DNA of 64,000 nt from Escherichia coli (GTDB lineage Bacteria > Pseudomonadota > Gammaproteobacteria > Enterobacterales > Enterobacteriaceae). The DNA is taken from the NCBI RefSeq assembly GCF_048403405.1, contig NZ_CP183129.1. The stretch is one strand, 5' to 3'. The position numbers and the translations under genes are program-made. The notes below the pieces were generated by a model. It saw nothing but the letters and a program-made list of their open reading frames with translations, did no database searches and was not told the origin of the DNA. This document shows positions 1 through 47,958 of this stretch, piece after piece; positions within the stretch are counted from its first letter, which is position 1, and the number at the start of each line of letters is the position of its first letter.

Positions 1-2
1 AT

Positions 3-551
3 CCGGTCAGCGATAACGCGGCGCTGACTGGGTTAAGTAAGCTTTTCCGGCACATTCAACCCGCCGTGAACGATCCTCAGGATCTGCGCGCAAAACTGGA
101 AATGCTGTGGGCGTCTTACTATGGCGGCGTAGCGATAACCCATGCGGGCACGCATCTCGTTCATGCGCTCTCCTACCCGTTAGGTGGCAAATATCATCTG
201 CCGCATGGCGTCGCGAATGCCATCTTGCTGGCGCCGTGCATGGCGTTTGTTCGCCCCTGGGCGGTCGAGAAATTTGCCCGGGTCTGGGATTGCATTCCCG
301 ATGCGGAAACCGCCCTGAGCGCGGAAGAAAAATCTCATGCCCTGGTGGCCTGGCTACAGGCATTAGTCAATCAACTCAAGCTACCCAACAATCTCGCGGA
401 TCTCGGCGTACCGCCAGAGGATATTGCCTCTCTTAGCGAGGCGGCACTGAACGTGAAGCGCCTTATGAACAATGCGCCGTGCCAGCTTGATCTACAGGAC
501 GTACAGGCCATTTACCAAACACTGTTTCCGCAACATCAATTTAAGGAATAA
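3..551 (+). CDS. Iron-containing alcohol dehydrogenase family protein, C-terminal part (gene continues upstream of the window)
   Basis: Open frame runs from the window edge to the stop at 551. The His-rich motif THAGTHLVHALSYPLGGKYHLPHGVANAILL resembles the metal-binding region of FucO/YqhD-type Fe-ADHs. The stop lies 3 nt before the next start codon. Confidence 0.6.
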   Translation, partial: PVSDNAALTGLSKLFRHIQPAVNDPQDLRAKLEMLWASYYGGVAITHAGTHLVHALSYPLGGKYHLPHGVANAILLAPCMAFVRPWAVEKFARVWDCIPDAETALSAEEKSHALVAWLQALVNQLKLPNNLADLGVPPEDIASLSEAALNVKRLMNNAPCQLDLQDVQAIYQTLFPQHQFKE

Positions 552-554
552 ATC

Positions 555-1442
555 ATGCCGAAAACCATTGAAGGTGTATTAACCGCCATCGTCACCCCGT
601 TTACCGCGACCGGCAGTCTGAATATCCCGGCGTTAAAAGTGCAGGTGAATCGTCAACTGGAAGCGGGTAACGCGATTTTTTGCGGCGGCACCAACGGCGA
701 GTTTTTTGTGTTGAATGAACAGGAGAAGCTCAGCGTTACGCAAACCTGCGTGGATGAAGTGGCTGGTCGTGCGCCGGTCGTGGCACACATTGGCGAGATC
801 TCGACGCGCGAAACGATTCGTCTGGGTCAGCAGATTGAAAAACTTGGCGTAGATGCTGTGTCGGTCATTACCCCTTACTTCGTACCGCTGAAACAGGAAG
901 AGTTGATTGCGCATTACAGCGCAATTGCCGACGCGCTGAGCATTCCGATGTTTCTCTATAACATCCCGGCCCGCACTGGCAATACGATCCAGCCGGAAAC
1001 CGCGCGTGCTCTGGCGTCGCATCCCAATATCATTGGGATTAAAGACAGCGCCGGAAGCGACGAAAGCCTGAAGGGTTTTCTCGATGCTGTGCGCAACATT
1101 GACGGCTTTAATGTACTCAACGGCCCGGATTCGCTGATCCATAAAGGGTTTGTCGAGGGGTGTTCAGCCTGTATCTCTGGGCTCGCCAACGTCGCACCGC
1201 GGGAAATCAATGCTATCTGGTCTCGCGTCCATGCCGGTGATATTGAAGGGTCTTATGAAGCACAGGAGAGTGTAACGGGCCTGCGTACCGACCTTTATAA
1301 AGTAGCGTTCTCCCCGGCTGCGGTGAAAAAAGCGTTGCAGCTTATGGGGCATGATGTTGGTGATAGCCGCTACGCGGTTAATTTCACGCCTGAACAGATC
1401 AGCGAGATTCAACAAATTATTCGTCATTATAACATTAATTAA
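555..1442 (+). CDS. DHDPS/N-acetylneuraminate-lyase family class I aldolase
   Basis: 295 aa. GGTNGEF motif resembles GTTGES of DapA; PYF and IIGIKDSAG contain the conserved Tyr and the Schiff-base Lys context of the DapA/NanA/KDG-aldolase family. RBS AAGGA lies upstream. Confidence 0.7.
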   Translation: MPKTIEGVLTAIVTPFTATGSLNIPALKVQVNRQLEAGNAIFCGGTNGEFFVLNEQEKLSVTQTCVDEVAGRAPVVAHIGEISTRETIRLGQQIEKLGVDAVSVITPYFVPLKQEELIAHYSAIADALSIPMFLYNIPARTGNTIQPETARALASHPNIIGIKDSAGSDESLKGFLDAVRNIDGFNVLNGPDSLIHKGFVEGCSACISGLANVAPREINAIWSRVHAGDIEGSYEAQESVTGLRTDLYKVAFSPAAVKKALQLMGHDVGDSRYAVNFTPEQISEIQQIIRHYNIN

Positions 1443-1501
1443 ATTAACTCTATTATCCAGCCCGCGATAAAGTTTAGATAAAGAGAATAAAGGATTACTC
1501 C

Positions 1502-2260
1502 ATGTTTTTGTGGTTTATGCAGCCAGATATCTGGCTCACTTTAATTACCCTCACCTTTCTGGAAATTATTCTTGGGGTGGATAATATTATTTTTCTTTCA
1601 CTGGTGGTGGCAAAACTTCCGTTATCACAACAAAATATGGCGCGTAAACTGGGTTTAAGCTGCGCGATGATTATGCGGATATTATTGCTGATATCCATTG
1701 CGTGGCTTTCACATATTACCCAGCCGCTTTTTACCGTGCTGACGCTGGAGATTTCGTTCCGCACGTTGATTCTGCTCGGGGGCGGGCTGTTCCTGATTTA
1801 TAAAGCGATACAGGAGATACGCGAAGAGCTGTCGCCCGCGCAGGAAGACGAACATGGCAGCGGATCGCGGCAACTGTCGTTGTGCGGTGCCATCGTACAG
1901 ATAATGCTGCTCGATATCGTGTTTAGCCTGGATTCGGTGATCACCGCCGTCGGCCTTTCTCAGCATATATTTATCATGATTGCCGCCGTAATGATTGCCG
2001 TCGGTGTCATGATGTTTGCGGCGAAAACAATTGGTGATTTCGTTAACGCCACGCCGTCAATAAAAATACTGGCGTTAACCTTTTTATTATTTGTCGGTGT
2101 ATTGCTGGTTGCCGATAGTCTCAACATTCATATTGCCAAAGAGTATCTCTACTTCGCGATATTTTTCTCATTAAGTGTTGAGACACTCAATATTATCCGT
2201 GAAAGAAGAAATAAAAAAGTTTCGACATTGATCGAAACGCATGAATCGCACTCGCATTAA
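1502..2260 (+). CDS. TerC/YgdQ-like (UPF0053) integral membrane protein
   Basis: 252 aa polytopic protein with LEIILGVDNIIFLSLVVAKLP and LDIVFSLDSVITAVG motifs typical of the TerC family. AAAGGA RBS. Visibly lower G+C (about 40 percent by eye) than its neighbours. Confidence 0.6.
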   Translation: MFLWFMQPDIWLTLITLTFLEIILGVDNIIFLSLVVAKLPLSQQNMARKLGLSCAMIMRILLLISIAWLSHITQPLFTVLTLEISFRTLILLGGGLFLIYKAIQEIREELSPAQEDEHGSGSRQLSLCGAIVQIMLLDIVFSLDSVITAVGLSQHIFIMIAAVMIAVGVMMFAAKTIGDFVNATPSIKILALTFLLFVGVLLVADSLNIHIAKEYLYFAIFFSLSVETLNIIRERRNKKVSTLIETHESHSH

Positions 2261-2295
2261 TAAATCTATTACCGACTTTAAGATGGAGTCTAACT

Positions 2296-3465
2296 ATGTC
2301 TGTAGCCCTTATTCGTGACGGCGTCATCCGTCCATCCGAAAACGATTCGCATGTGCTTACCGCCATGCTGCCCTCGTCCTGCCCACAAAACCACGCGGCG
2401 AATATTCTGCCTTTGCCGGATGGCGCGTTAATGTGCGTCTGGTTTGCGGGAACGCAGGAAGGTATTGCCGATATTTCTGTCTGGGGATCGCGATTGCCCG
2501 CTGGCGGGATGCAGTGGAGCGATGCGGTCAAACTTTCCCACGATGACACGCGTTCAGAGCAAAACCCAGTGCTGTTTCTCGCGCCGGATAACGTGCTGTG
2601 GCTGCTATGGACCGCACAAATATCCGGGAATCAGGACACCGCCATCGTCCGCTACCGTAAGTCAGACGACCTCGGACAAACCTGGGGCGAGATTGCCACG
2701 CTGCTCGATAAACCCGGCACGTTCATTCGCCAGCCGATCACGGTGCTTGATAACGGCAACTGGCTGCTGCCCGTCTTTTATTGCCGTACCCAACCCGGTG
2801 AAAAATGGGTCGGCAATGATGATATCAGCGCAGTGAAAATTTCCGCTGACGGTGGTCACTCCTGGCGCGATGTCGTGGTGCCGCAAAGTCTCGGCTGCGT
2901 TCATATGAATATCACAATGCTGCACGACAGTACGTTGGTTGCTCTCTTTCGAAGCCGTTGGGCAGACAACATCTATATCAGCCATTCAGTGGACAACGGC
3001 GAGAGTTGGTCGGTGCCGCAAGCTACCGAATTGCCCAACAACAATTCGTCTATTCAGGTAACGACGCTTGCCAGCGGCGAACTGGCGCTGGTGTACAACG
3101 CGATGAGTGCGGCAGGCGCAGTAGAACGTCGCGCGTCGCTTTATGACGAAATCGACGATGGCGACGACAGCCGCAAAGAACCGACAGCCGTCGGACGCTC
3201 CGCTTTCTGGGGGGCCCCACGCGCGCCGATGACGGTAGCGATTTCTGCCGATGGTGGGAAAAGCTGGCCGTGGCGGCGCAATCTCGATGAAGGCGACGGC
3301 TACTGCATGACCAACAATTCCCTGGAAAAGCTAAATCGTGAGTTCTCCTACCCCAGCATCAAACAAAGCCCGGACGGTACGCTACATATCGCTTACACCT
3401 GGTGGCGTCAGGCCATCAAGTACGTGCGCATCTCCCCCGAGTGGGTTAAGGGGCAGGCATCATGA
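2296..3465 (+). CDS. BNR/Asp-box repeat sialidase-like beta-propeller protein (GH33-like), apparently cytoplasmic
   Basis: 389 aa with four Asp-box motifs (SDDLGQTW, SADGGHSW, SVDNGESW, SADGGKSW). The N-terminus has no hydrophobic signal peptide. GGAG RBS. Confidence 0.65.
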   Translation: MSVALIRDGVIRPSENDSHVLTAMLPSSCPQNHAANILPLPDGALMCVWFAGTQEGIADISVWGSRLPAGGMQWSDAVKLSHDDTRSEQNPVLFLAPDNVLWLLWTAQISGNQDTAIVRYRKSDDLGQTWGEIATLLDKPGTFIRQPITVLDNGNWLLPVFYCRTQPGEKWVGNDDISAVKISADGGHSWRDVVVPQSLGCVHMNITMLHDSTLVALFRSRWADNIYISHSVDNGESWSVPQATELPNNNSSIQVTTLASGELALVYNAMSAAGAVERRASLYDEIDDGDDSRKEPTAVGRSAFWGAPRAPMTVAISADGGKSWPWRRNLDEGDGYCMTNNSLEKLNREFSYPSIKQSPDGTLHIAYTWWRQAIKYVRISPEWVKGQAS

Positions 3466-3932
3466 TTATCGGTAATCTCAACCATTTGTCGCTGGCGGGG
3501 CTTCCCGCCTGGGTGAGAAATATTCTGCTGTGCCCGGAGTGTTCGTTATCGGCGTTATCCGCCAGAGAGGACGGTCGCTGGCAACCTGAAGGATGTCGGT
3601 GGTTCTGCACGCTGGGAACTTCAGACACGCAACCCGCCGAACTCCGCCATACGGAGTATCACCATCTGTGGGCCGATATCCAGGTGGTGATTACTGGTTG
3701 TGAGGGCATTAATGCGGGAACGCGGCCCATCGCTCGCGAAAACGATGAAGAACGTAAGCCCGATCTGTTTATCGCCCCATCCCCTGAAAACAGTGTCGCC
3801 ATCACTCTACACCCCGGTGATTTCGCCGTCTTTATGCCTGAGGAACCTCACCAGGCGCTGTGCGCGATTGGCGCGGCTACGTCAGTACGCAAAGCGGTCT
3901 TTAAGGTACCGCGCGACATGCTGGAAGCCTAA
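3462..3932 (+). CDS. YhcH/YjgK/YiaL (DUF386) family protein, NanQ/EbgC-like
   Basis: 156 aa. C-terminal GDFAVFMPEEPH closely matches the conserved motif of E. coli YhcH. Start codon overlaps the upstream stop (ATGA), suggesting translational coupling. Confidence 0.65.
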   Translation: MIIGNLNHLSLAGLPAWVRNILLCPECSLSALSAREDGRWQPEGCRWFCTLGTSDTQPAELRHTEYHHLWADIQVVITGCEGINAGTRPIARENDEERKPDLFIAPSPENSVAITLHPGDFAVFMPEEPHQALCAIGAATSVRKAVFKVPRDMLEA

Positions 3933-3945
3933 AAGGAGAGAAAAA

Positions 3946-5226
3946 ATGACAATGGAAATGATCCTGGCATTAGGAATACTGGTCCTGATGATCGTGCTGA
4001 TCATGTCGGACAAAATGCCATTTGGCGCACCGCCACTGCTTGCGTGTTTATTGCTGGTTGTCTCGGGACTTTCGACCGTTCAACAGGCTTTTGCCGGATT
4101 CGTCAATCCAAGCGTGGTGATGATTGCAGGGTTTATGGTGGTCATGGCAGCGCTACAAAAAACCCGGCTTATCAGCAACGTTAAATCTGCGATGATAAGC
4201 CTGGTCAATAAAGGCAGTTACCGCAGCTACGGGCTGTTGTTAGTCATTGTTATGCTGGGTGCCAGTCTTGCAGGCACCGGCGCGACCGGTTATTACGTGC
4301 TGATTCTGTCGCTGGTATCCACCATTCCGTACAGTAAAAAGCTACCAACATCGAAATTAATGATGCCCCTGGGATTTGCCACCAACCACCCGCTTCTTCC
4401 TATCAATCTCGCGCTTCTCTTTGGCGTTACGGCGACCGTACTCGAAACCGCGGGTTTTCATCAGGAGATTTCGATGGGGCGCTTTGCGCTGGTGAATCTC
4501 ATCATGTCAGCGGCGTTCCTCGCATGGAGTCTTATTGCCTACCGTTTTCTTCCGGATCATCCCATTGCGGATGCTTCCGAGGATGCGCTGGCGGCACGCG
4601 AGGAAACGTTTAACGCCCTTCCTGCCTGGAAAGAATATTGCACTATTGCCGCATTCGCTGTCAGCGTTATCGGCATGATGCTAATGAACATTCTGGGAAA
4701 TATCGCCTTCGTTATTCCGGGTCTTGCGGGTGCGTTTGTTCTGATGATCGATGTACTGGACTTTAAAGAAGTTCGCGATCATATGGGAGCGCCGGTCATT
4801 TTAATGATGGCGGGGGTGATCGGTGTAGCTGATGCACTGGCGGGCACCGGCTTTACGGCGATGGTTGGCGATGCCGTTGCAGGTGTGCTCGGTTCTGGCG
4901 TCTCACCGTTTGTATTTATTGTCGCCTTTGCTTTGCTTACCAGTACCTGCGCCACCTTCACGGGTTCGAATATGGGGTCTGTTTATATTTTTGCCCCCAT
5001 CGCCATTGCCGCCTGTACCAGCCTTGGGCTTAACCCGACCGCTGCAGCGATTGCGGTGGTGATTTCAGGCTGGAACGGCGGCTATATGCCTATTGACGGA
5101 ATGCCAGCCATGATCCTCGGAATGGGGAAATACAAACTTCCCGAATTCTGGGTGTTCTCTGTACCAATGTATCTCATCCGCATTCTGGCGCTTTGTGCAG
5201 GCGCTGTTTTTATCTTCCCAATGTAA
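3946..5226 (+). CDS. Polytopic permease with two-repeat architecture (ion-transporter superfamily-like; exact family unresolved)
   Basis: 427 aa from the ATG preceded by a strong AAGGAG RBS; the ORF track's longer 508-aa frame overlaps the upstream gene. Multiple hydrophobic segments and an internal repeat (NPSVVMIAGFMVV / GAPVILMMAGVIGV). Confidence 0.5.
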   Translation: MTMEMILALGILVLMIVLIMSDKMPFGAPPLLACLLLVVSGLSTVQQAFAGFVNPSVVMIAGFMVVMAALQKTRLISNVKSAMISLVNKGSYRSYGLLLVIVMLGASLAGTGATGYYVLILSLVSTIPYSKKLPTSKLMMPLGFATNHPLLPINLALLFGVTATVLETAGFHQEISMGRFALVNLIMSAAFLAWSLIAYRFLPDHPIADASEDALAAREETFNALPAWKEYCTIAAFAVSVIGMMLMNILGNIAFVIPGLAGAFVLMIDVLDFKEVRDHMGAPVILMMAGVIGVADALAGTGFTAMVGDAVAGVLGSGVSPFVFIVAFALLTSTCATFTGSNMGSVYIFAPIAIAACTSLGLNPTAAAIAVVISGWNGGYMPIDGMPAMILGMGKYKLPEFWVFSVPMYLIRILALCAGAVFIFPM

Positions 5227-5233
5227 TCTCAGA

Positions 5234-5271
5234 CAAAAAAAGCGGCAGAGAAGATCCCTGCCGCTTTTTAT
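5234..5271. terminator. Bidirectional rho-independent terminator between the convergent permease gene and nagE
   Basis: A-tract, GC hairpin AGCGGCAG...CTGCCGCT, then T-tract. Confidence 0.55.
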
Positions 5272-5314
5272 TGTTGGATGCGACGCTGCCGTGTCGCATC
5301 AGGTATAAAGCAGA

Positions 5315-7261
5315 TTACTTTTTGATTTCATACAGCGGCGTTTGACCCGCCACGACATGGCCCTGAGCTTTAATGATCAAGCCGCTGAAATCGTCGATAT
5401 TGCTGCAAACCACCGGGCTAATCATCGAGCGGGCGTTAGCGTTCAGGTAATCCAGATCCATTTCCAGAATCGGTTGTCCTGCGCTTACCTGCGCGCCCTC
5501 TTCCACCAGACGTTTAAAACCTTTACCTTCCAGCGCTACGGTGTCGATACCCATATGGACGACGATCTCCGCGCCTTTTTCGGTTTCCAGGCAGAACGCG
5601 TGGTTGGTATTGAAGATTTTCACGATTGTCCCTGCGGCTGGTGATACGACGATTTTATCTGTCGGTTTCACCGCCACACCGTCACCCACCGCTTTGCTGG
5701 CGAATGCTTCGTCAGGAACCTGATCCAGTGCCACAACATCACCGGTAATCGGCGATACCAGCTCCGCGACAGACACCGCGTTTGGTATAGCCTGCGGTTT
5801 TGCTACAGGCGCGGCAGTTGCAGGCGCAGTTTCAGCTGACGTAGCGGCTACCGGACCACGGGCAACAACTTTCTTCATTGCATCGCCAATGGATTCCGCT
5901 TTCGCGCCAACAATCACCTGAATAGTCTGTTTGTTCAGTTTCACTACCCCAGAAGCACCCAGCCGTTTACACATCGCATCGTTGACGCGAGCCGAGTCAA
6001 CCACGGTCAGGCGCAGACGAGTAATACAGGCGTCAATTGCTTTCAGGTTGTCAGTGCCGCCAACCGCAGCAATATAGTTGGTCGCCAGTTGATTGAGGCC
6101 TTCTTCAGTGTTGCTGTTGGCTTCTTCAGTAACGATCTCATCTTCTTTATCTTCACGACCCGGCGTTTTCAGGTTGAACATGCGGATAACCAAACTGAAC
6201 ACCACGAAGTAGATAGCGAAGAAGACAACACCCATCACCAGCAGCATCCAGACGTTCTGGCTGGCGGCCGGCAGGTTATACATCAACGCGTAGTCGATAG
6301 CCCCCGCAGAGAAGGAGAAGCCCGCGTGGATACCCAGCAGCGTTGCCACAAACAGGCTGATACCGGTCAGCAGTGCGTGCAGGAGGTACAGCAGCGGCGC
6401 AAGGAACATGAACAGGAATTCCAGCGGCTCAGTCACACCGGTCAGGAACGCAGTAACAGCAACAGAAAGCAGCATACCGCCAACCATCGGACGACGCTCT
6501 TTCGGTGCTGCAAAGTACATCGCCAGCGCCGCACCCGGCAGACCGAACATCATGATCGGGAAGAAGCCGGACATGAACATCCCCGCGGTGCCGTCACCGG
6601 CATAGAAGCGGTTGATGTCACCGTGGAAAACCGTACCCGCCGCGTTGGTGAATTCACCAATCTGGAACCAGGCGATGGTGTTCAGTACCTGATGCAGACC
6701 GGTTGGGATCAGCAGACGGTTGATGAAACCAAAGATACCGGAACCCAGCGCGCCCGCAGAAACGATCCACTCGCCGCCTGCATGGATAGCGTGCTGTACC
6801 GGCGGCCAGACGTAACCAAAAATGGCCGCCAGCACCAGGCAGAAGAAGCCGGTGGCAATCGGCACAAAGCGTTTGCCGCCGAAGAAACTCAGGAAGTCCG
6901 GCAGTTTAATATCGGACCAACGGTTATAAGCTGCGCCACCAACCAGACCGGTAATGATACCCGCCAGTACACCCATGTTAATTTCCGGGTTGATGGTCAC
7001 CATCGCTTTGGTTAACACAAAGTAACCTACCGCACCCGCCAGCGCCGCCGCACCTGCGCTGTCTTTCGACCAGCTGGATGCCACACCGATGGCGAAGATT
7101 AATGCGAGGTTATCAAAAATCGCACCGCCCGCCTGGGCAATAAACGCAACGTTAAGTAAATCTGGCTGACCGAATCGCAGCAACAGCGCCGCCACCGGCA
7201 GCACCGCGATAGGGAGCTGTAACGCCCTACCGAGTCGCTGGAAAAAACCTAAAATATTCAT
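5315..7261 (-). CDS. nagE: PTS N-acetylglucosamine-specific EIICBA component
   Basis: 648 aa; sequence and position divergent from nagB match E. coli NagE. Confidence 0.93.
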   Translation of the reverse strand: MNILGFFQRLGRALQLPIAVLPVAALLLRFGQPDLLNVAFIAQAGGAIFDNLALIFAIGVASSWSKDSAGAAALAGAVGYFVLTKAMVTINPEINMGVLAGIITGLVGGAAYNRWSDIKLPDFLSFFGGKRFVPIATGFFCLVLAAIFGYVWPPVQHAIHAGGEWIVSAGALGSGIFGFINRLLIPTGLHQVLNTIAWFQIGEFTNAAGTVFHGDINRFYAGDGTAGMFMSGFFPIMMFGLPGAALAMYFAAPKERRPMVGGMLLSVAVTAFLTGVTEPLEFLFMFLAPLLYLLHALLTGISLFVATLLGIHAGFSFSAGAIDYALMYNLPAASQNVWMLLVMGVVFFAIYFVVFSLVIRMFNLKTPGREDKEDEIVTEEANSNTEEGLNQLATNYIAAVGGTDNLKAIDACITRLRLTVVDSARVNDAMCKRLGASGVVKLNKQTIQVIVGAKAESIGDAMKKVVARGPVAATSAETAPATAAPVAKPQAIPNAVSVAELVSPITGDVVALDQVPDEAFASKAVGDGVAVKPTDKIVVSPAAGTIVKIFNTNHAFCLETEKGAEIVVHMGIDTVALEGKGFKRLVEEGAQVSAGQPILEMDLDYLNANARSMISPVVCSNIDDFSGLIIKAQGHVVAGQTPLYEIKK

Positions 7262-7593
7262 CTTATTCCCCCTACGAGAACCCTATTTGGCTCGTTTAAA
7301 GCCGTATTTTTATTTTGCTGCAAATTGTACTGCCGATGTTCTGTAATCAGATTGTTAGATCATCTGCTACAGAGTGTGTGAAAATTTAATTCGTATCGCA
7401 AATTAAACGCGTGTCTTTTGTGAGTTTTGTCACCAAATATCGTTATCATCACTCCCTTTTACTGGCTAAACCAGAAAACTTATTTTATCATTCAAAAAAT
7501 CAGGTCGGATTGACGCCTGTCTGCGCAAATCCAGGTTACGCTTAAAGATGCCTAATCCGCCAACGGCTTACATTTTACTTATTGAGGTGAATA
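7262..7593. promoter_or_regulatory. Divergent nagE / nagBACD control region with CRP site and NagC operator-like palindrome
   Basis: CRP-like site TGTGAgttttgTCACC at 7419-7434; AT-rich palindrome TTAATTCGTATCGCAAATTAA at about 7386-7406 resembles a NagC operator. Confidence 0.55.
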
Positions 7594-9602
<2,009 letters not shown>

Positions 9603-9610
9603 GAGAAAGT

Positions 9611-10831
9611 ATGACACCAGGCGGACAAGCTCAGATAGGTAATGTTGATCTCGTAAAACAGCTTAACAGCGCGGCGGTTTATCGCTTGATTGACCAGTAC
9701 GGGCCAATCTCGCGGATTCAGATTGCCGAGCAAAGCCAGCTTGCCCCCGCCAGCGTAACCAAAATTACGCGTCAGCTTATCGAACGCGGGCTGATTAAAG
9801 AAGTTGATCAGCAGGCCTCCACCGGGGGCCGCCGCGCTATCTCTATCGTCACCGAAACCCGCAATTTCCACGCAATCGGCGTACGGCTTGGTCGTCACGA
9901 CGCCACCATCACTCTGTTTGATCTCAGTAGCAAAGTGCTGGCAGAAGAACATTACCCGCTGCCGGAACGTACCCAGCAGACGCTGGAACATGCCCTGCTG
10001 AATGCCATTGCTCAGTTTATTGATAGCTACCAGCGCAAACTGCGCGAGCTGATCGCCATTTCCGTGATCCTGCCAGGACTTGTTGACCCGGACAGCGGCA
10101 AAATTCATTACATGCCGCATATTCAGGTAGAAAACTGGGGGCTGGTAGAAGCTCTGGAAGAACGTTTTAAAGTGACCTGTTTCGTCGGTCACGATATCCG
10201 TAGTCTGGCGCTGGCGGAGCACTACTTCGGTGCAAGTCAGGATTGCGAAGACTCCATTCTGGTGCGTGTACATCGCGGAACCGGGGCCGGGATTATCTCT
10301 AACGGGCGCATTTTTATTGGCCGCAACGGTAACGTCGGTGAAATTGGCCATATTCAGGTCGAACCGCTGGGTGAACGCTGCCACTGCGGCAACTTTGGCT
10401 GCCTGGAAACTATCGCCGCCAACGCTGCCATTGAACAACGGGTGTTGAATCTGTTAAAGCAGGGCTACCAGAGCCGTGTGCCACTGGACGACTGCACCAT
10501 CAAAACTATCTGCAAAGCCGCGAACAAAGGCGATAGCCTGGCGTCGGAAGTGATTGAGTATGTCGGTCGTCATCTGGGCAAAACCATCGCCATTGCTATC
10601 AACTTATTTAATCCGCAAAAAATTGTTATTGCCGGTGAGATCACCGAAGCCGATAAAGTGCTGCTCCCTGCTATTGAAAGCTGCATTAATACCCAGGCGC
10701 TGAAGGCGTTTCGTACTAATCTGCCGGTGGTACGTTCTGAGCTGGATCACCGCTCGGCAATCGGCGCTTTTGCGCTGGTAAAACGCGCCATGCTCAACGG
10801 TATTTTGCTCCAGCATTTGCTGGAAAATTAA
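9611..10831 (+). CDS. nagC: ROK-family transcriptional regulator of the nag regulon
   Basis: 406 aa; N-terminal HTH then ROK sugar-kinase-like domain; synteny. Confidence 0.93.
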   Translation: MTPGGQAQIGNVDLVKQLNSAAVYRLIDQYGPISRIQIAEQSQLAPASVTKITRQLIERGLIKEVDQQASTGGRRAISIVTETRNFHAIGVRLGRHDATITLFDLSSKVLAEEHYPLPERTQQTLEHALLNAIAQFIDSYQRKLRELIAISVILPGLVDPDSGKIHYMPHIQVENWGLVEALEERFKVTCFVGHDIRSLALAEHYFGASQDCEDSILVRVHRGTGAGIISNGRIFIGRNGNVGEIGHIQVEPLGERCHCGNFGCLETIAANAAIEQRVLNLLKQGYQSRVPLDDCTIKTICKAANKGDSLASEVIEYVGRHLGKTIAIAINLFNPQKIVIAGEITEADKVLLPAIESCINTQALKAFRTNLPVVRSELDHRSAIGAFALVKRAMLNGILLQHLLEN

Positions 10832-10878
10832 TGTGCTTTTATAGTGGCGCTTATTGTTGTCAATATTCTGGGTAGTCC

Positions 10879-11631
10879 ATGACCATTAAAAATGTAATTT
10901 GCGATATCGACGGCGTGCTGATGCACGATAACGTCGCCGTACCGGGTGCAGCGGAATTTTTGCACGGGATTATGGATAAAGGCCTGCCGCTGGTGTTGCT
11001 GACCAACTATCCTTCGCAGACCGGGCAAGATCTGGCGAACCGCTTTGCCACTGCCGGTGTCGATGTACCGGATAGCGTGTTTTATACCTCCGCGATGGCA
11101 ACCGCCGATTTCCTGCGTCGCCAGGAAGGCAAGAAAGCATATGTGGTGGGCGAAGGCGCACTGATTCATGAACTGTACAAAGCCGGTTTCACTATTACCG
11201 ATGTGAACCCTGATTTTGTGATTGTTGGCGAAACGCGTTCCTACAACTGGGACATGATGCATAAAGCAGCCTATTTCGTCGCTAACGGTGCACGCTTTAT
11301 CGCCACCAACCCGGACACCCACGGGCGCGGTTTTTATCCCGCGTGTGGCGCGTTGTGTGCAGGCATCGAAAAAATCTCCGGGCGTAAACCGTTCTATGTT
11401 GGTAAACCGAGTCCGTGGATCATCCGCGCAGCATTAAACAAAATGCAGGCGCATTCGGAAGAAACAGTGATTGTCGGCGATAACCTGCGTACCGATATTC
11501 TGGCGGGCTTCCAGGCCGGTCTGGAGACGATTCTGGTACTCTCTGGCGTTTCGTCGCTCGACGATATCGACAGTATGCCATTCCGCCCCAGCTGGATTTA
11601 CCCATCGGTCGCTGAAATCGACGTTATCTGA
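10879..11631 (+). CDS. nagD: HAD-superfamily UMP phosphatase
   Basis: 250 aa; DxDG HAD motif (ICDIDGVL); synteny after nagC. Confidence 0.9.
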   Translation: MTIKNVICDIDGVLMHDNVAVPGAAEFLHGIMDKGLPLVLLTNYPSQTGQDLANRFATAGVDVPDSVFYTSAMATADFLRRQEGKKAYVVGEGALIHELYKAGFTITDVNPDFVIVGETRSYNWDMMHKAAYFVANGARFIATNPDTHGRGFYPACGALCAGIEKISGRKPFYVGKPSPWIIRAALNKMQAHSEETVIVGDNLRTDILAGFQAGLETILVLSGVSSLDDIDSMPFRPSWIYPSVAEIDVI

Positions 11632-11636
11632 ATAGC

Positions 11637-11670
11637 AACCACGCCTCAGGGCGTGGTTTCTTATTTTTAC
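11637..11670 (+). terminator. Rho-independent terminator after nagD
   Basis: Hairpin CCACGCC-tca-GGCGTGG followed by a T-rich run. Confidence 0.55.
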
Positions 11671-11887
11671 CCATCATTAAAATTCACCCATTCAATAAAA
11701 CCCGCCAAAAATTATCGATTCATCAATAAATACACCTCCACACCCTACCCTTTTTCATTAATCAGCAATCACCATTACGTTTTTTATTTACCCCCTGCCA
11801 AATCGCTTGCGTACAGTGCTGCTTTGCGGCATTTTTTTAAACAAGCAAACACAACAAGCAACAAATACCAGGTTAACGGAGAAGGTT

Positions 11888-13552
11888 ATGTGTTCAATTT
11901 TTGGCGTATTCGATATCAAAACAGACGCAGTTGAGCTGCGTAAGAAAGCACTCGAACTGTCACGCCTGATGCGTCATCGTGGCCCGGACTGGTCCGGTAT
12001 TTATGCCAGCGATAACGCCATTCTCGCCCACGAACGTCTGTCAATTGTTGACGTTAACGCGGGGGCGCAACCTCTCTACAACCAACAAAAAACTCATGTG
12101 CTGGCGGTAAACGGTGAAATCTACAACCACCAGGCACTGCGCGCCGAATATGGCGATCGTTATCAGTTCCAGACCGGATCTGACTGCGAAGTGATCCTCG
12201 CGCTGTATCAGGAAAAAGGGCCGGAATTTCTCGACGACTTGCAGGGCATGTTTGCCTTTGCCCTGTACGACAGCGAAAAAGATGCATATCTGATTGGTCG
12301 CGACCATCTGGGGATCATCCCACTGTATATGGGCTATGACGAACACGGTCAGCTGTATGTGGCCTCAGAAATGAAAGCCCTGGTGCCAGTTTGCCGCACG
12401 ATTAAAGAGTTCCCGGCGGGGAGCTATTTGTGGAGCCAGGACGGCGAAATCCGTTCTTATTATCACCGCGACTGGTTCGACTTTGATGCAGTGAAAGATA
12501 ACGTGACCGACAAAAACGAGCTGCGTCAGGCACTGGAAGATTCCGTTAAAAGCCATCTGATGTCTGACGTTCCTTACGGTGTGCTGCTATCTGGTGGCCT
12601 GGATTCCTCAATCATTTCCGCGATCACCAAGAAATACGCCGCCCGTCGCGTGGAAGATCAGGAACGCTCTGAAGCCTGGTGGCCGCAATTACACTCCTTT
12701 GCTGTAGGTCTGCCGGGTTCACCGGATCTGAAAGCAGCCCAGGAAGTGGCAAACCATCTGGGCACGGTGCATCACGAAATTCACTTCACTGTACAGGAAG
12801 GTCTGGACGCCATCCGCGACGTGATTTACCACATCGAAACCTATGATGTGACCACTATTCGCGCTTCAACACCGATGTATTTAATGTCGCGGAAGATCAA
12901 GGCGATGGGCATTAAAATGGTGCTGTCCGGTGAAGGTTCTGATGAAGTGTTTGGCGGTTATCTTTACTTCCACAAAGCACCGAATGCCAAAGAACTGCAT
13001 GAAGAGACGGTGCGTAAACTGCTGGCCCTGCATATGTATGACTGCGCGCGTGCCAACAAAGCGATGTCAGCCTGGGGCGTGGAAGCACGCGTTCCGTTCC
13101 TCGACAAAAAATTCCTCGACGTGGCGATGCGCATTAACCCACAGGATAAAATGTGCGGTAACGGCAAAATGGAAAAACACATCCTGCGTGAATGTTTTGA
13201 GTCGTACTTGCCCGCAAGTGTGGCCTGGCGGCAGAAAGAGCAGTTCTCCGATGGCGTCGGTTACAGTTGGATCGACACCCTGAAAGAAGTAGCGGCACAG
13301 CAGGTTTCTGATCAACAGCTGGAAACTGCCCGCTTCCGCTTCCCGTACAACACGCCGACGTCCAAAGAAGCGTATCTGTACCGCGAGATCTTTGAAGAAC
13401 TGTTCCCGCTTCCGAGCGCCGCTGAGTGCGTGCCGGGCGGCCCTTCCGTCGCGTGTTCTTCCGCTAAAGCGATCGAGTGGGATGAGGCGTTCAAGAAAAT
13501 GGACGATCCGTCTGGTCGTGCGGTTGGTGTTCACCAGTCGGCGTATAAGTAA
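11888..13552 (+). CDS. asnB: Asparagine synthetase B (glutamine-hydrolysing)
   Basis: 554 aa from the ATG preceded by a GGAGAAGG RBS; N-terminal MCSIFGV (Cys2 nucleophile) typical of AsnB. The ORF-track N-terminal extension is rejected. Confidence 0.93.
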   Translation: MCSIFGVFDIKTDAVELRKKALELSRLMRHRGPDWSGIYASDNAILAHERLSIVDVNAGAQPLYNQQKTHVLAVNGEIYNHQALRAEYGDRYQFQTGSDCEVILALYQEKGPEFLDDLQGMFAFALYDSEKDAYLIGRDHLGIIPLYMGYDEHGQLYVASEMKALVPVCRTIKEFPAGSYLWSQDGEIRSYYHRDWFDFDAVKDNVTDKNELRQALEDSVKSHLMSDVPYGVLLSGGLDSSIISAITKKYAARRVEDQERSEAWWPQLHSFAVGLPGSPDLKAAQEVANHLGTVHHEIHFTVQEGLDAIRDVIYHIETYDVTTIRASTPMYLMSRKIKAMGIKMVLSGEGSDEVFGGYLYFHKAPNAKELHEETVRKLLALHMYDCARANKAMSAWGVEARVPFLDKKFLDVAMRINPQDKMCGNGKMEKHILRECFESYLPASVAWRQKEQFSDGVGYSWIDTLKEVAAQQVSDQQLETARFRFPYNTPTSKEAYLYREIFEELFPLPSAAECVPGGPSVACSSAKAIEWDEAFKKMDDPSGRAVGVHQSAYK

Positions 13553-39852: not shown

Positions 39853-40116
39853 ATGAAAACCAAACTTAACGAACTGCTTGAATTCCCTACTCCTTTTACT
39901 TACAAAGTTATGGGGCAGGCGTTACCTGAGCTGGTTGATCAGGTGGTTGAAGTGGTACAGCGCCATGCGCCAGGTGACTACACCCCAACGGTAAAACCAA
40001 GCAGCAAAGGCAACTACCACTCGGTATCTATCACTATCAACGCTACTCATATCGAGCAGGTTGAAACACTGTATGAAGAACTGGGCAAAATCGATATTGT
40101 CCGCATGGTTCTGTAA
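39853..40116 (+). CDS. ybeD: UPF0250 protein YbeD
   Basis: 87 aa; conserved position upstream of lipB. Confidence 0.88.
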
Positions 40117-40216
40117 CTCGCTTCTCCGTTACCCGGCTCCTGGTCGGGTAACTCCCCTCTCCTCGCTGTGATATACTTTTCCCCCACTTTTACTCATTCT
40201 CCACGGAGATGCCGTT

Positions 40217-40858
40217 TTGTATCAGGATAAAATTCTTGTCCGCCAGCTCGGTCTTCAGCCTTACGAGCCAATCTCCCAGGCTATGCATGAATTCACCGAT
40301 ACCCGCGATGAAAGTACCCTTGATGAAATCTGGCTGGTCGAGCACTATCCGGTATTTACCCAAGGGCAGGCAGGAAAAGCGGAGCACATTTTAATGCCGG
40401 GTGATATTCCGGTGATTCAGAGCGATCGCGGTGGGCAGGTGACTTATCACGGGCCGGGGCAACAGGTGATGTATGTGTTGCTTAACCTGAAACGCCGTAA
40501 ACTCGGTGTGCGTGAACTGGTGACCTTGCTTGAGCAAACAGTGGTGAATACCCTGGCTGAACTGGGTATAGAAGCGCATCCTCGGGCTGACGCGCCTGGT
40601 GTCTATGTCGGGGAAAAGAAAATTTGCTCACTGGGTTTACGTATTCGACGCGGTTGTTCATTCCACGGTCTGGCATTAAACGTCAATATGGATCTTTCAC
40701 CATTTTTACGTATTAATCCTTGTGGGTATGCCGGAATGGAAATGGCTAAAATATCACAATGGAAACCCGAAGCGACGACTAATAATATTGCACCGCGTTT
40801 ACTGGAAAATATTTTAGCGCTACTAAACAATCCTGACTTCGAATATATTACCGCTTAA
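40217..40858 (+). CDS. lipB: Octanoyltransferase (lipoyl(octanoyl) transferase)
   Basis: 213 aa; TTG start; recognised as LipB. Confidence 0.92.
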
Positions 40859-41117
40859 TTGCATACATCAATGGCCCAATTTACACTGGGTCATTACTCA
40901 TAATACCTGCTAATGCTTTACATCTCCTTCGCGTTTGTATATTTTCTTTATCACTTGCAGAAATGCGATGCTACGCCTTGCTCCGTAACTCACCCCATTG
41001 ATTAACTTATTGAAATAGTTGATTATGGTGAGCAAAAGCGTTCCGTTCCAATTAGACATAAGATTATTGTAATTTTTTTTAATATTATTTTTCCATGAAT
41101 AAAATTGGAGTAAGTGC

Positions 41118-42071
41118 GTGGATAGTAATAATCAAATTGAAACCTGTTTAAGCAGAAAGTCGTCAGAAGATAAACCACAAATATTTACAACCTTACGAAA
41201 TATTGATCTTAACCTTCTGACTATTTTTGAAGCTGTATATGTACATAAAGGGATCGTTAATGCAGCGAAAGTGCTTAATCTGACACCCTCGGCAATCAGT
41301 CAGTCTATTCAGAAACTGCGCGTTATATTCCCTGACCCATTGTTTATTCGCAAAGGCCAGGGTGTCACTCCTACCGCATTTGCGATGCATCTACATGAGT
41401 ATATCAGTCAGGGCCTTGAGTCCATTCTTGGCGCGCTGGATATCGAAGGAAGCTATGATAAGCAACGAACGATAACCATTGCGACCACCCCCTCGGTCGG
41501 AGCCCTGGTCCTTCCTGTCATCTATCGGGCGATTAAATCTCACTATCCGCAGCTTTTACTGCGCAACCCCCCCATCAGCGACGCGGAAAACCAACTCAGT
41601 CAGTTTCAAACCGATCTCATCATCGATAACATGTTTTGCACCAATCGTACGGTGCAACATCATGTTCTGTTCACCGACAATATGGTGTTAATTTGCCGCG
41701 AGGGAAATCCACTACTCTCTTTAGAAGATGACAGGGAGACTATCGACAACGCTGCGCATATACTCCTGTTACCGGAAGGGCAAAATTTCAGCGGTCTGCG
41801 GCAGAGAGTTCAAGAGATGTTTCCGGACCGGCAAATCAGTTTCACCAGCTACAACATTTTGACAATCGCTGCACTGGTTGCCAACAGTGACATGTTAGCG
41901 ATTATTCCCAGCCGTTTTTATAACCTGTTTAGCCGTTGCTGGCCGCTGGAAAAACTGCCTTTTCCGTCCTTAAATGAGGAGCAAATAGATTTCTCTATCC
42001 ACTACAACAAATTCAGCCTGCGTGATCCCATCCTGCACGGGGTAATAGATGTTATCCGTAATGCATTTTGA
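41118..42071 (+). CDS. ybeF: LysR-family transcriptional regulator
   Basis: 317 aa; N-terminal LysR HTH (LTPSAISQSIQKLR). Confidence 0.85.
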   Translation: MDSNNQIETCLSRKSSEDKPQIFTTLRNIDLNLLTIFEAVYVHKGIVNAAKVLNLTPSAISQSIQKLRVIFPDPLFIRKGQGVTPTAFAMHLHEYISQGLESILGALDIEGSYDKQRTITIATTPSVGALVLPVIYRAIKSHYPQLLLRNPPISDAENQLSQFQTDLIIDNMFCTNRTVQHHVLFTDNMVLICREGNPLLSLEDDRETIDNAAHILLLPEGQNFSGLRQRVQEMFPDRQISFTSYNILTIAALVANSDMLAIIPSRFYNLFSRCWPLEKLPFPSLNEEQIDFSIHYNKFSLRDPILHGVIDVIRNAF

Positions 42072-42279
42072 AAAAGTATTGTTACAGCCAGATCACAGCG
42101 AAGAACGAAAAAATGGCACAATCCAACAACAATTTTACATTTTCGCGACCGCTTTGGCTGCTTTCAGGTCCGTTTCAATGATATACTGCCAGTCGTTAAT
42201 TCAAAAATAGTTGATAATTACAACAATCTATTGAATTGAAACGCTTTCCTTCGTAATTCGCAACTGGAACACGCACGCT

Positions 42280-43245
42280 ATGAGTAAACCCATTGTGATG
42301 GAACGCGGTGTTAAATACCGCGATGCCGATAAGATGGCCCTTATCCCGGTTAAAAACGTGGCAACAGAGCGCGAAGCCCTGCTGCGCAAGCCGGAATGGA
42401 TGAAAATCAAGCTTCCAGCGGACTCTACACGTATCCAGGGCATCAAAGCCGCAATGCGCAAAAATGGCCTGCATTCTGTCTGCGAGGAAGCCTCCTGCCC
42501 TAACCTGGCGGAATGCTTCAACCACGGCACAGCAACGTTTATGATCCTCGGCGCTATTTGTACCCGCCGTTGTCCGTTCTGTGACGTTGCCCACGGTCGC
42601 CCGGTAGCTCCGGATGCCAATGAACCAGTGAAACTGGCGCAGACCATTGCCGATATGGCGCTGCGTTATGTGGTTATCACCTCCGTTGACCGTGATGACC
42701 TGCGCGATGGCGGTGCCCAACACTTTGCGGATTGCATTACTGCCATTCGGGAAAAAAGCCCGCAAATCAAAATTGAAACTCTGGTGCCGGATTTCCGCGG
42801 TCGTATGGATCGTGCTCTGGATATTCTGACCGCCACACCACCAGATGTATTCAACCATAACCTGGAAAACGTACCGCGTATTTACCGTCAGGTACGGCCT
42901 GGTGCGGATTACAACTGGTCGCTGAAGCTGCTGGAACGCTTTAAAGAAGCGCATCCGGAAATCCCGACCAAGTCTGGTCTGATGGTGGGTCTGGGTGAAA
43001 CCAATGAAGAAATTATTGAGGTAATGCGCGACCTGCGCCGTCATGGTGTGACGATGCTAACGCTGGGGCAATATTTGCAGCCAAGCCGCCATCACCTGCC
43101 GGTTCAACGTTACGTTAGCCCGGATGAGTTCGACGAAATGAAAGCCGAAGCGCTGGCGATGGGCTTTACCCATGCTGCATGCGGTCCGTTTGTCCGCTCG
43201 TCTTACCACGCCGATTTGCAGGCGAAAGGGATGGAAGTTAAGTAA
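42280..43245 (+). CDS. lipA: Lipoyl synthase (radical SAM)
   Basis: 321 aa; CPNLAEC and CTRRCPFC cysteine clusters. Confidence 0.95.
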
Positions 43246-43275
43246 TCCTGTAATAATTACTTACATCTATCTGAT

Positions 43276-43306
43276 AAAAAACCCGCTTTTTGAAGCGGGT
43301 TTTTTT
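43276..43306. terminator. Bidirectional terminator between lipA and tatE
   Basis: AAAAA-ACCCGCTT-tttg-AAGCGGGT-TTTTTT. Confidence 0.7.
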
Positions 43307-43346
43307 GTATCGAACAAGATATTGAGGGAGCGTCCTGCTCGCCACG

Positions 43347-43550
43347 TCACTCTTTATGAGAGAGCTTTTCAGCCTGAAGATCAACGTCTGCGCCTTTTTT
43401 CGCCGCAGCATCGTCATCATTCATCGCCTTCTTGAACCCTTTAATGGCCGCTCCAAGGTCTCCGCCCAGCGTACGTAACTTCTTAGTCCCAAACAGCAGA
43501 ACGACCAGCGCCGCAACTACCAGCAGTTTGGTAATACTAATCTCACCCAT
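43347..43550 (-). CDS. tatE: Sec-independent protein translocase TatE
   Basis: 67 aa; recognised as TatE (TatA paralog). Confidence 0.92.
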
Positions 43551-43678
43551 AGATACCTTCTTGACATATAACCGGCAACAGAACGCGCCTTAAAAACCAG
43601 AGAATATTAACGGTCATTCGACGCGCGCACACAATAGCAATCTGTAACAAGGTGAATCAAGCGCCGAGTAAAAAAACA

Positions 43679-44473
43679 TCATAATAATTGCGGCGGCGCA
43701 AAGCGACGGTTGTTTAAAACGGGAAGTTGCGCGCGCACCTGACGCACACGTTCGGGCGTCACTTCCGCCATAATGAGTGCAGGCATTTCTGACGCTGCCG
43801 CAATGGTGACGCCAAAGGGATCTATAATCCGGCTTTGCCCGATATTTTTGTTCCCGCACTCCCCCGCCGCCACCATATAACAGGTGGTATCCAGCGCACG
43901 AGCGGCAAGCAACGTTGACCAGTGATGCTCTTTGAGCGGCCCACGAACCCAGGCGGCAGGAAGTACCAGGATTTCAGCTCCCTGTAATGCCTGTGCCAGC
44001 GCCAGCTCTGGAAAGCGTAAGTCATAACAGGTCATCAGACCGACCTTCATCCCTTCCACCTCCAGTAACGGAGCTATTTCATTACCAGCATCAACATGGC
44101 GTGATTCCTGAATGGCAAATGCATCATAGAGATGCAGTTTGGCATAACGGGCGACGATGTTTCCTGCCTGTAGCGCCACCAGCATATTCCATGCGCGCCC
44201 CGGCGTTGAAGGAACATGAATCGTCAGAATTGTCGTCATCATGTTACGTTTACTTTCTCGCCGTAAACGTCCGAGGAATTCGCCTTCCAGCAGCTGTGCT
44301 GATTTAACCGATAGATCTGCATCATGATCATCGCGCGCCAGCAATGCTTCCGGCAGGACAAACAGCGATACGTCGTTTTCCGCCGCCTGCGCCATCAACG
44401 AGGCACAAATCTCAGCGTTCTTTTCCCACACAGATGTAACAGCAAACTGTCCTGCGGCAACCAGCATTGCCAC
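43679..44473 (-). CDS. ybeM: C-N hydrolase (nitrilase superfamily) protein, apparently intact
   Basis: 264-aa uninterrupted ORF at the position of ybeM, which I recall as a pseudogene in K-12. Confidence 0.7.
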
Positions 44474-44562
44474 CTCCTCCTGTCAGAGTCGTAAAATTCG
44501 CCAACGGCGATTATTCGGCGTTACACTTATCACTCATACAAATCAAATAGCAGGATTTTGCA

Positions 44563-44946
44563 GTGTTACAACTTCTTTTAGCAGTTTTTATTGGCGGTGG
44601 TACGGGAAGCGTGGCGAGATGGCTGTTAAGTATGCGATTTAACCCGCTGCATCAAGCGATTCCGTTGGGGACGCTGGCTGCAAACCTGATTGGGGCATTC
44701 ATCATAGGAATGGGATTCGCCTGGTTTAGCAGGATGACGAACATTGATCCAGTGTGGAAAGTATTAATCACCACCGGATTTTGTGGCGGTCTAACAACCT
44801 TCTCAACATTTTCGGCAGAAGTGGTGTTTTTGTTACAAGAGGGCCGCTTTGGCTGGGCGTTACTGAACGTTTTCGTCAACCTTTTGGGGTCTTTTGCCAT
44901 GACCGCACTGGCTTTCTGGCTGTTTTCCGCCTCAACCGCACACTAA
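44563..44946 (+). CDS. crcB: Fluoride channel CrcB/FluC
   Basis: 127 aa; GTG start; small four-helix membrane protein. Confidence 0.9.
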
Positions 44947-44951
44947 AGACC

Positions 44952-44980
44952 AAAAAAAACCCGCTGATTAAGCGGGTTTT
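44952..44980. terminator. Bidirectional terminator between crcB and cspE
   Basis: A-tract, CCCGCT-gatta-AGCGGG hairpin, T-tract. Confidence 0.65.
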
Positions 44981-44999
44981 GAATTCTTGCTGACGTATC

Positions 45000-45209: not shown

Positions 45210-45383
45210 CAAAATTACCTTTACATGAAAAATAGACACAAATGCTGTGTCGGTTACCAGTACACCAATTGTGGTACGCTTTGTCCAGTGCAACTTTACT
45301 AAAAAGTGATAAAAGTCGCGTTATTTTTGATGTTACTTATTTTAGTTATTGATTTTAAAGAAGTTACTAAAACTTCATTTGTC

Positions 45384-47918: not shown

Positions 47919-47958
47919 ATAGTCATGCCGGAGGCAAGTTTCCTCCGGCTTTATCATG

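Follow-up and report, generated by a model that had tools for sequence, protein, structure and literature searches.

A cytoplasmic sialidase-fold protein with an altered catalytic set in a gene cluster linked to D-threonate genes in Escherichia coli

The exo-alpha-sialidases of glycoside hydrolase family 33 (GH33, clan GH-E), such as the enzyme of Micromonospora viridifaciens (1EUT/1EUS) and human cytosolic Neu2 (1SNT), have a six-bladed sialidase-type beta-propeller as their hallmark. The same clan provides a precedent for a changed active site: the inverting sialidase AmGH181 (Amuc_1547) of Akkermansia muciniphila (8AXI, 8HLS) manages with only two of the triad arginines, the third being replaced by Gln (PMC10067855). 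Here we analyze a gene for a propeller of this type in Escherichia coli, located at positions 2296..3465 on the plus strand of a 64,000-nucleotide stretch of contig NZ_CP183129.1 (assembly GCF_048403405.1), which we call the window. Its product, the BNR protein, has the GH33 hallmark fold and is named 'exo-alpha-sialidase' or 'sialidase family protein' in databases. Two further systems concern the genes around it and the sugar that we discuss below, 3-deoxy-D-lyxo-heptulosaric acid (Dha), a C7 dicarboxylic sugar of the pectin rhamnogalacturonan-II (RG-II). Zhang et al. are said to have described, in PNAS in 2016, D-threonate catabolism via the DUF1537 kinase DtnK and PdxA2, and Ndeh et al. reportedly described in 2017 BT1020, a GH143 Dha hydrolase that takes part in RG-II degradation by Bacteroides thetaiotaomicron (5MQS).

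The BNR gene lies inside a nine-gene accessory island with glnS on one flank and nagE on the other. Its island partners encode a DeoR regulator, DtnK, PdxA2, an iron-containing alcohol dehydrogenase (Fe-ADH), an aldolase of the dihydrodipicolinate synthase (DHDPS) type, a TerC-family protein, a YhcH/NanQ-like protein and an SLC13 permease. Our preferred reading, which we hold tentatively, is that the BNR protein may be the cytoplasmic entry enzyme of a conserved Nan-like pathway for a different 3-deoxy-2-ulosonic acid, for which Dha would be the best candidate. A more specific version is possible but doubtful: an undescribed Dha pathway of bacteria and fungi that would use a His-for-Arg variant of the sialidase fold, a YhcH ring opener, the aldolase, Fe-ADH, DtnK and PdxA2 to reach dihydroxyacetone phosphate (DHAP).

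Fold, location and active site of the BNR protein

The BNR protein contains 389 residues and folds as a GH33-like BNR_2 propeller with six blades. Pfam BNR_2 matches residues 43-365 (1e-63) and is the sole family match, as no NCBIfam model, sialidase models included, covers the protein; a single-sequence search of the PDB returned nothing useful. A previous reading made from the DNA alone (the sequence-only reading) had counted four Asp-boxes, and the same number of strict boxes (S-x-D-x-G-x-x-W) was found, at residues 123 (SDDLGQTW), 183 (SADGGHSW), 231 (SVDNGESW) and 317 (SADGGKSW). At least one strict box arose in only 245 of 20,000 shuffles of the protein. There is also a degenerate fifth box at residues 65-74 (SRLPAGGMQW), whose counterpart in the alignment with 4fj6 is the box 'SRSTDKGQTW'.

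The BNR protein is cytoplasmic, because an in-frame stop lies 17 codons 5' of its ATG with no start codon in between, and because no hydrophobic stretch, lipobox or twin-arginine motif, and no signal peptide, was found when its N-terminus was inspected. A GGAG sequence is located 8 nt 5' of the ATG, and orthologues from other phyla begin at the equivalent position. The lack of a signal peptide and lipobox, which the sequence-only reading had claimed, is therefore borne out by the upstream stop, the motif check and the orthologue starts. Nor did a cryptic secretion signal, an intact arginine triad or a profile assignment to a non-glycosidase family come to light. The BNR stop overlaps the start of the YhcH/NanQ-like gene by 4 nt (ATGA, 3462-3465), and this overlap implies that the two genes are translationally coupled.

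The active site was mapped by aligning a family profile to solved sialidases (HMMER, with 4fj6 and AmGH181) and to human Neu2 (hhalign, with the Neu2 sequence verified against 1snt). Conservation was assessed in 93 orthologues from several bacterial phyla and, for one sequence, from a fungal-looking contig. Twenty-nine positions are invariant in these 93 sequences, including H33, E55, D59, R145, R219, R221, N248 and N250. Alignment and conservation together give H33, E55, D59, R145, H203, R219, R221, R309, Y352 and R371 as candidate active-site residues, all of which are probably located in the top-face loops of the propeller.

The arginine of the RIP motif, the first of the triad, is absent, in agreement with the earlier claim. 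Hhalign pairs N36 with Neu2 A24, which puts H33 on R21 of 'YRIPAL', and this position is His in 93/93 orthologues. The sole R-[ILV]-P in the protein, RLP at residues 66-68, was considered as a cryptic RIP motif and rejected because it sits inside the degenerate fifth Asp-box. The second and third triad arginines are R219 (invariant in 93) and R309 (92/92) by profile alignment to 4fj6; their counterparts in AmGH181 are R234 and R305. Y352, in the motif SYPS, is kept in 91 of 92 sequences and falls, by sequence alignment only, on AmGH181 position 350, where GH33 enzymes have their Tyr nucleophile (PMC10067855). The position of the Glu partner of this Tyr is not acidic. It is H203 in the HMMER alignment to 4fj6 or C201 in the hhalign alignment to Neu2, and H203 is kept in 91/93 orthologues and is Gln in distant relatives. 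The position of the acid/base Asp, in the blade-1 loop, is taken by E55 (HMMER, 4fj6) or D59 (hhalign, Neu2 D46), both invariant. Three extra invariant arginines, R145, R221 and R371 (the last in 92/92 sequences), lie beyond the triad. R371 aligns two residues away from Q367 of AmGH181, which 'substitutes the third arginine' (PMC10067855), and might take over the role of the lost RIP arginine.

As aligned, the BNR protein has a sialidase fold in which the Tyr and two of the carboxylate-binding arginines persist, His occupies two canonical positions, and three additional arginines are invariant. Given that it retains Tyr352 along with two triad arginines, chemistry at the anomeric carbon of a 2-ulosonic acid is the most likely predicted activity.

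The loss of two canonical catalytic residues could also mean that the island carries the BNR protein along as a relic without activity or as a binding protein that catalyzes nothing, and the E. coli cluster is indeed rearranged relative to most others, with TerC in place of an SSS-family symporter and without a short-chain dehydrogenase (SDR). However, the invariant positions hold across several phyla and fungi. Of 5426 complete E. coli genomes, 1047 have the gene as a single chromosomal copy, ST131 and E2348/69 among them, and its open reading frame (ORF) is intact and at least 97.8% identical in all 1047, in addition to its coupling to the next gene. This conservation excludes a dead relic, and we regard the explanation as a whole as extremely improbable.

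Gene linkage and a predicted route to D-threonate

We compared 85 loci, 80 from a one-genome-per-species scan (orthologues 60-86% identical) and 5 from metagenomes, counting neighbors within 10 kb of the BNR gene. PdxA2 and the aldolase were each found in 62 loci, DtnK and Fe-ADH each in 60, YhcH in 46 and the DeoR regulator in 43. A BNR ORF was called in 79 of the loci; ORF calling is crude in GC-rich loci, and several loci are short contigs. Within this subset, 49 loci contain all four core genes (PdxA2, DtnK, Fe-ADH and aldolase), an SSS-family symporter gene is directly upstream of BNR in 51, a YhcH gene is directly downstream in 42, and an SDR gene is no more than two genes downstream in 48. 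The same gene set recurs in metagenomic loci.

In E. coli, the DeoR, PdxA2 and DtnK genes lie on one side and are divergent from the Fe-ADH, aldolase, TerC, BNR, YhcH-like and SLC13 permease genes. DtnK and PdxA2 both exceed the cutoffs of the NCBIfam equivalog models for D-threonate catabolism (NF047819 and NF002891), with 532.5 bits versus 450 for DtnK as D-threonate kinase and 679.9 bits versus 583 for PdxA2 as D-threonate-4-phosphate dehydrogenase. Fe-ADH, whose 3' part occupies 1..551 (plus strand) and whose full gene begins 606 nt before the window according to PGAP, has sub-threshold NCBIfam matches only, to lactaldehyde and sulfoacetaldehyde reductases. The adjacent gene (555..1442, plus strand) encodes a 295-residue class I pyruvate aldolase of the DHDPS/NanA superfamily, classified by NCBIfam scores and by alignment with DapA. 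It scores 191 bits with the dapA model (cutoff 206) and 147.8 and 114 bits with the N-acetylneuraminate lyase equivalogs (cutoffs 281 and 382), and so is below all of these cutoffs and nearer DapA than NanA. It is 33% identical to E. coli DapA, and its K163, Y135 and R140 correspond to DapA K161, Y133 and R138. Among 56 cluster aldolases, K163 and Y135 are kept in 56/56 and R140 in 52/56, and DapA Y107 is replaced by Phe in 53.

The sequence-only reading had also proposed that the substrate is imported first, by a permease encoded about 500 nt downstream. Our observations support this: the gene for an SLC13/DASS-type anion permease (3946..5226, plus strand; PGAP, with a weak DASS match to TIGR00785 of 56 bits) starts 481 nt after the BNR stop within one operon-like block, and orthologous genes commonly have a transporter directly upstream, as counted above. 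What that reading overlooked is the gene filling the interval, which encodes a YhcH/YjgK/YiaL (NanQ-like) protein (3462..3932, plus strand; TIGR00022 97 bits, cutoff 45.5). This protein scores 91.5 bits with the NanQ equivalog, below the cutoff of 160, and its nearest solved structure is 9jrr, a DUF386 protein.

The importers differ between clusters. In one cluster the importer is a DctP TRAP system, and the solved structure nearest to its binding protein is that of the sialic-acid-binding SiaP; some clusters have TAXI-TRAP systems and others an Opp/Dpp-type ABC transporter. The E. coli-type SLC13 permease occurs in 5 related loci at 74-88% identity, two of them Firmicutes. In Clostridium caldaquaticum and Paenibacillus ginsengihumi (L062, L075), the permease is 77-78% identical and the other cluster proteins are 26-63% identical, which suggests a recent cross-phylum transfer of the transporter gene alone. 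An SDR is present in 44 of 53 SSS clusters versus 0 of 5 SLC13 clusters; we draw no conclusion on an association between SDR and SSS, because the SLC13 clusters are few and in part related to one another, and an SDR is missing from 9 SSS clusters.

Is the compound a sialic acid? A genuine exo-sialidase, or a hydrolase for 2-keto-3-deoxynononic acid (Kdn) or 3-deoxy-D-manno-octulosonic acid (Kdo), would let B2 strains of E. coli use host sialoglycans, or Kdo derived from lipopolysaccharide, after import. The GH33 fold and the database names support this explanation, as do the NanA-like and NanQ-like neighbors, the SiaP-like binding protein of one cluster and the fact that the island is typical of extraintestinal pathogenic strains (PMC12928451). 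However, the RIP arginine and the Glu partner of the Tyr are replaced throughout the orthologues, the aldolase and the YhcH-like protein are below the NanA and NanQ equivalog cutoffs, and the island contains no nanK, nanE or nanT. Cleavage of N-acetylneuraminic acid (Neu5Ac), Kdn and Kdo would give N-acetylmannosamine, mannose and arabinose, none of which feeds DtnK and PdxA2, and the family has its center in fungi and plant-associated bacteria. Taken together, the residue replacements, the enzymes downstream and the host taxa make this role very unlikely. The framing of the sequence-only reading in terms of sialosides and 2,7-anhydro-sialic acid is not supported, given partners such as DtnK, PdxA2, Fe-ADH and the DapA-like aldolase and the plant-associated or pectinolytic hosts. 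Its other option, a non-sialidase activity on the same fold, was the better half of its alternatives, although Tyr352 and two triad arginines are retained.

Returning to our preferred reading, we infer the following order of steps. An anion transporter would import the compound, namely SLC13 in E. coli and SSS, SiaP-like TRAP, TAXI-TRAP or ABC systems elsewhere. The BNR enzyme would then hydrolyze a small ketoside at its anomeric C2 and free the sugar acid. In this step Tyr352 could be the nucleophile, helped by His203, with Glu55 or Asp59 as acid/base; Arg219 and Arg309 may grip the C1 carboxylate, and Arg145, Arg221 and Arg371 may contact other parts of the substrate, perhaps another carboxylate. 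The YhcH/NanQ-like protein, as an anomerase or ring-opener, would provide the open-chain form to the DapA-like aldolase, which would cleave it into pyruvate and the C4 aldehyde-acid D-threuronate. Fe-ADH, as an aldehyde reductase, would reduce D-threuronate to D-threonate, and DtnK and PdxA2 would turn D-threonate into DHAP and CO2, with the genes regulated by DeoR.

The C7-diacid logic behind these steps is also our inference. For an alcohol dehydrogenase to form D-threonate by reduction, the aldolase must release a C4 aldehyde with a carboxylate already in place, which makes a 2-keto-3-deoxy-heptarate the expected substrate of the aldolase. This fits the conserved equivalent of DapA R138 in the aldolase (52/56) and the di/tricarboxylate (DASS/SLC13) type of the E. 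coli importer. In DapA, R138 binds aspartate semialdehyde through the carboxylate of this C4 aldehyde-acid, and the adduct formed by DapA is a diacid with seven carbons. Working the stereochemistry by hand, we found that the D-lyxo C5 and C6 of Dha lead to D-threuronate and then to D-threonate, and DtnK and PdxA2 are specific for this isomer; applied to Kdo, such reasoning gives D-arabinose, as it should. We set aside Kdo, Kdn, Neu5Ac, 3-deoxy-D-arabino-heptulosonic acid (DAH) and unsaturated uronates as substrates, as their aldol products do not lead to D-threonate. We know of no natural compound other than Dha that would satisfy the product logic, and we hypothesize on this ground that Dha is the substrate and that the bond cut is a ketosidic one. 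The literature searched contains no description of Dha catabolism or of the function of this cluster, two key background papers being outside that search. The BNR protein most likely turns the imported form into the free sugar acid, because its gene is as conserved in the cluster as the aldolase gene and is adjacent to the importer.

Several observations weigh against this reading. The choice of Dha depends on the compounds known to us, and the island DtnK is only ~40% identical to the characterized Salmonella enzyme (PMC12928451). Hhalign and HMMER differ by two residues at the Glu position (C201 versus H203) and also disagree on E55 versus D59. With both the RIP arginine and the Glu partner of the Tyr replaced, retaining ketosidase chemistry is not guaranteed. 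The SSS, SiaP-like TRAP, TAXI-TRAP and DASS transporters are types for monosaccharide-sized acids; if free Dha is imported, a glycosidase has no obvious job. The linked SDR has no role in the proposed scheme, and E. coli does not have it. In 19 of the 79 loci, some of them short contigs, all four core genes are missing within 10 kb, and an SSS-BNR-SDR triad stands alone, with the four core genes absent within 10 kb, in Pantoea and Enterobacter cancerogenus (L027, L032, L064), Bacillus (L053, L061) and Bradyrhizobium (L081).

The size of the transported acids and the tightly linked SDR bear on the main rival explanation, in which the pathway is the same and the BNR protein acts non-glycosidically, hydrating a 2,3-ene or opening an anhydro or lactone form of a monosaccharide-sized acid to give the free ulosaric acid. 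Sialidases hydrate Neu5Ac2en, the 2,3-ene of Neu5Ac, and the SDR recalls the oxidoreductive processing of 2,7-anhydro-Neu5Ac by NanOx/YjhC. The importers are of sialic-acid-size kinds (SSS in 51/79 loci, SiaP-like DctP, TAXI-TRAP and DASS), the catalytic set is changed from Arg1 to His and from Glu to His, and AFDB names suggest fusions to PdxA and HpcH aldolase, enzymes that act on small molecules. However, we know of no natural dehydrated or anhydro Dha, the SDR is absent from E. coli and several other clusters, and Opp/Dpp-type ABC transporters in some clusters could move larger molecules. The retained Tyr352 and two triad arginines fit glycoside cleavage equally well. We consider this explanation rather unlikely.

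The lone triads raise a further alternative, which is that a different compound is degraded and the D-threonate genes handle its other fragment. The aglycone could be D-threonate or a precursor of it, or a C7 monocarboxylic ulosonic acid could give D-threose, to be oxidized by the SDR. This would explain the SDR, whose role is otherwise unaccounted for, and the genomes in which the triad occurs without aldolase, Fe-ADH, kinase and PdxA2, and it would suit the SSS family, which is typically linked to monocarboxylates. The Pantoea-type triads (L027, L032, L064) also adjoin a LysR regulator and a divergent gene that by eye resembles a tartrate or isopropylmalate dehydrogenase. However, Fe-ADH is linked as tightly as the aldolase (60 versus 62 of the 85 loci), a linkage that aldehyde reduction accounts for; the aldolase retains the arginine equivalent to DapA R138, E. 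coli has everything else without an SDR, and we can name no natural candidate compound. This alternative seems improbable to us, and we continue with the Dha reading.

Island, hosts and possible significance

Gene calls for the neighbors come from the PGAP annotation of the identical region in strain 4621, one of several E. coli strains to which the sequence is 100% identical. Between the aldolase and BNR genes lies the gene for the TerC-family membrane protein (1502..2260, plus strand; PGAP/NCBIfam), which is not a core member of the cluster. Outside E. coli, TerC takes the usual position of the SSS symporter only in Klebsiella spallanzanii, Kluyvera and one gut isolate; it was found in 3 of the 85 related loci, and a TerC gene is also close to the cluster in metagenomic locus L005. 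The E. coli layout, with TerC replacing SSS, SLC13 added and SDR absent, is therefore a minority variant shared with the same few organisms. An Rfam scan of window positions 1-8000 found no riboswitch, hence no Mn riboswitch for TerC, and promoter and terminator scans gave results at chance level.

The right-hand edge of the island (5227..5300) was placed by comparison with island-free strains: approximately 490 E. coli genomes match only positions 5232-5300, the last 69 bp of the query, so the core genome resumes at about 5232, before nagE. The adjoining core genes are nagE (5315-7261, minus strand), nagB (7594-8394) and nagA (8454-9602), in which nothing unusual was seen. Elsewhere in the window, the GC content dips to 0.42-0.47 at 40000-52000 and 62000-64000, compared with ~0.51-0.54 in the remainder, and these stretches may be other horizontally acquired segments. 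A 2026 comparison lists the island region as 'GR 6' among uncharacterized regions common to extraintestinal pathogenic E. coli, and mentions a similar cluster in Sinorhizobium meliloti (PMC12928451).

The BNR family occurs mostly in organisms that are associated with plants, degrade pectin or live in the gut. Among them are Pectobacterium, Dickeya, Erwinia, Pantoea, Kosakonia, Rahnella, Gilliamella, Paenibacillus, clostridia, Bradyrhizobium and Methylobacterium, as well as the Bacillus pumilus and Bacillus licheniformis groups. This ecology fits a nutrient derived from pectin. AFDB contains proteins 52-54% identical to the BNR protein in Aspergillus niger, A. oryzae and A. flavus, and further ones in Cercospora, Colletotrichum and several lactobacilli. 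On a metagenome contig with fungal-type transcription factors (L003, positions 8024-13403), a BNR gene with 50% identity neighbors DHDPS, PdxA and MFS genes, and together with the Aspergillus orthologues this contig points to a pathway that crosses kingdoms.

By their names and lengths, the AFDB entries A0A257H979, A0A1I1JV56 and A0A9P1JZ79 suggest natural fusions of BNR with an HpcH/HpaI aldolase (648 residues) and with PdxA (711 residues, Devosia), and in addition a modular protein of 724 residues in Azospirillum. In the long homologues P0195, P0180 and P0223, in which domain fusions were sought, BNR_2 was the only domain matched, and no family could be assigned to their extensions.

If the preferred reading is correct, it would give a function to a protein family whose members are labeled 'sialidase' in thousands of genomes, among them those of the main industrial Aspergillus species and a fifth of the complete genomes of E. 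coli, and it would mean that a sialidase active site can operate with His replacing both the RIP arginine and the Glu partner of the Tyr. It would also define a microbial route for consuming an unusual acidic sugar of the most complex plant polysaccharide, and would supply D-threonate catabolism with a physiological feedstock. For E. coli, it would offer a nutritional role for a region listed as uncharacterized in extraintestinal pathogenic strains (PMC12928451), and it would caution against taking 'sialidase' labels in these genomes as a sign of foraging on mucin or host glycans. In the more specific and doubtful version, the pathway would be the missing natural source of D-threonate, and the island would let these strains cross-feed in the gut on products of pectin breakdown.

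Comparison with known systems

Compared with GH33 sialidases, the BNR protein is 13-19% identical and has the propeller, the Asp-boxes, the second and third triad arginines and the Tyr, whereas an invariant His replaces the RIP arginine and a His replaces the Glu partner. It adds the invariant R145, R221 and R371, and its genomic partners point away from sialic acid. AmGH181 is the best profile-to-PDB match (E 6.6e-17), but the GH181 signature, in which His-Gln replaces the Tyr nucleophile and the Glu is retained, is not what we see: the BNR protein keeps Y352 and has His at the Glu position. BT1020 is not the closest relative, and no sequence-level relationship between the BNR protein and this GH143 enzyme was found. 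BT1020 is a surface or periplasmic multidomain protein of 1081 residues, more distant from the BNR protein than the GH33 enzymes are.

At the level of the gene cluster, the island is like the E. coli Nan system in combining an acidic-sugar importer, a YhcH-family protein and a pyruvate aldolase of the DHDPS superfamily in a single operon, and the orthologous clusters use sialic-acid transporter families (SSS, SiaP-like TRAP and ABC) as Nan systems do. Unlike the Nan system, the island has an aldolase and a YhcH-like protein that score below the NanA and NanQ cutoffs, contains C4-acid genes (Fe-ADH, DtnK and PdxA2) instead of NanK and NanE, and adds a cytoplasmic propeller enzyme. The described D-threonate system is matched by DtnK and PdxA2, which pass both equivalog cutoffs and adjoin a DeoR-type regulator. 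In that system D-threonate itself is the nutrient, whereas the island genes belong to a larger cluster, in which D-threonate would be produced from a compound of greater size. We therefore rate the BNR protein as a known fold with an altered catalytic set, in an uncharacterized but widely conserved pathway.

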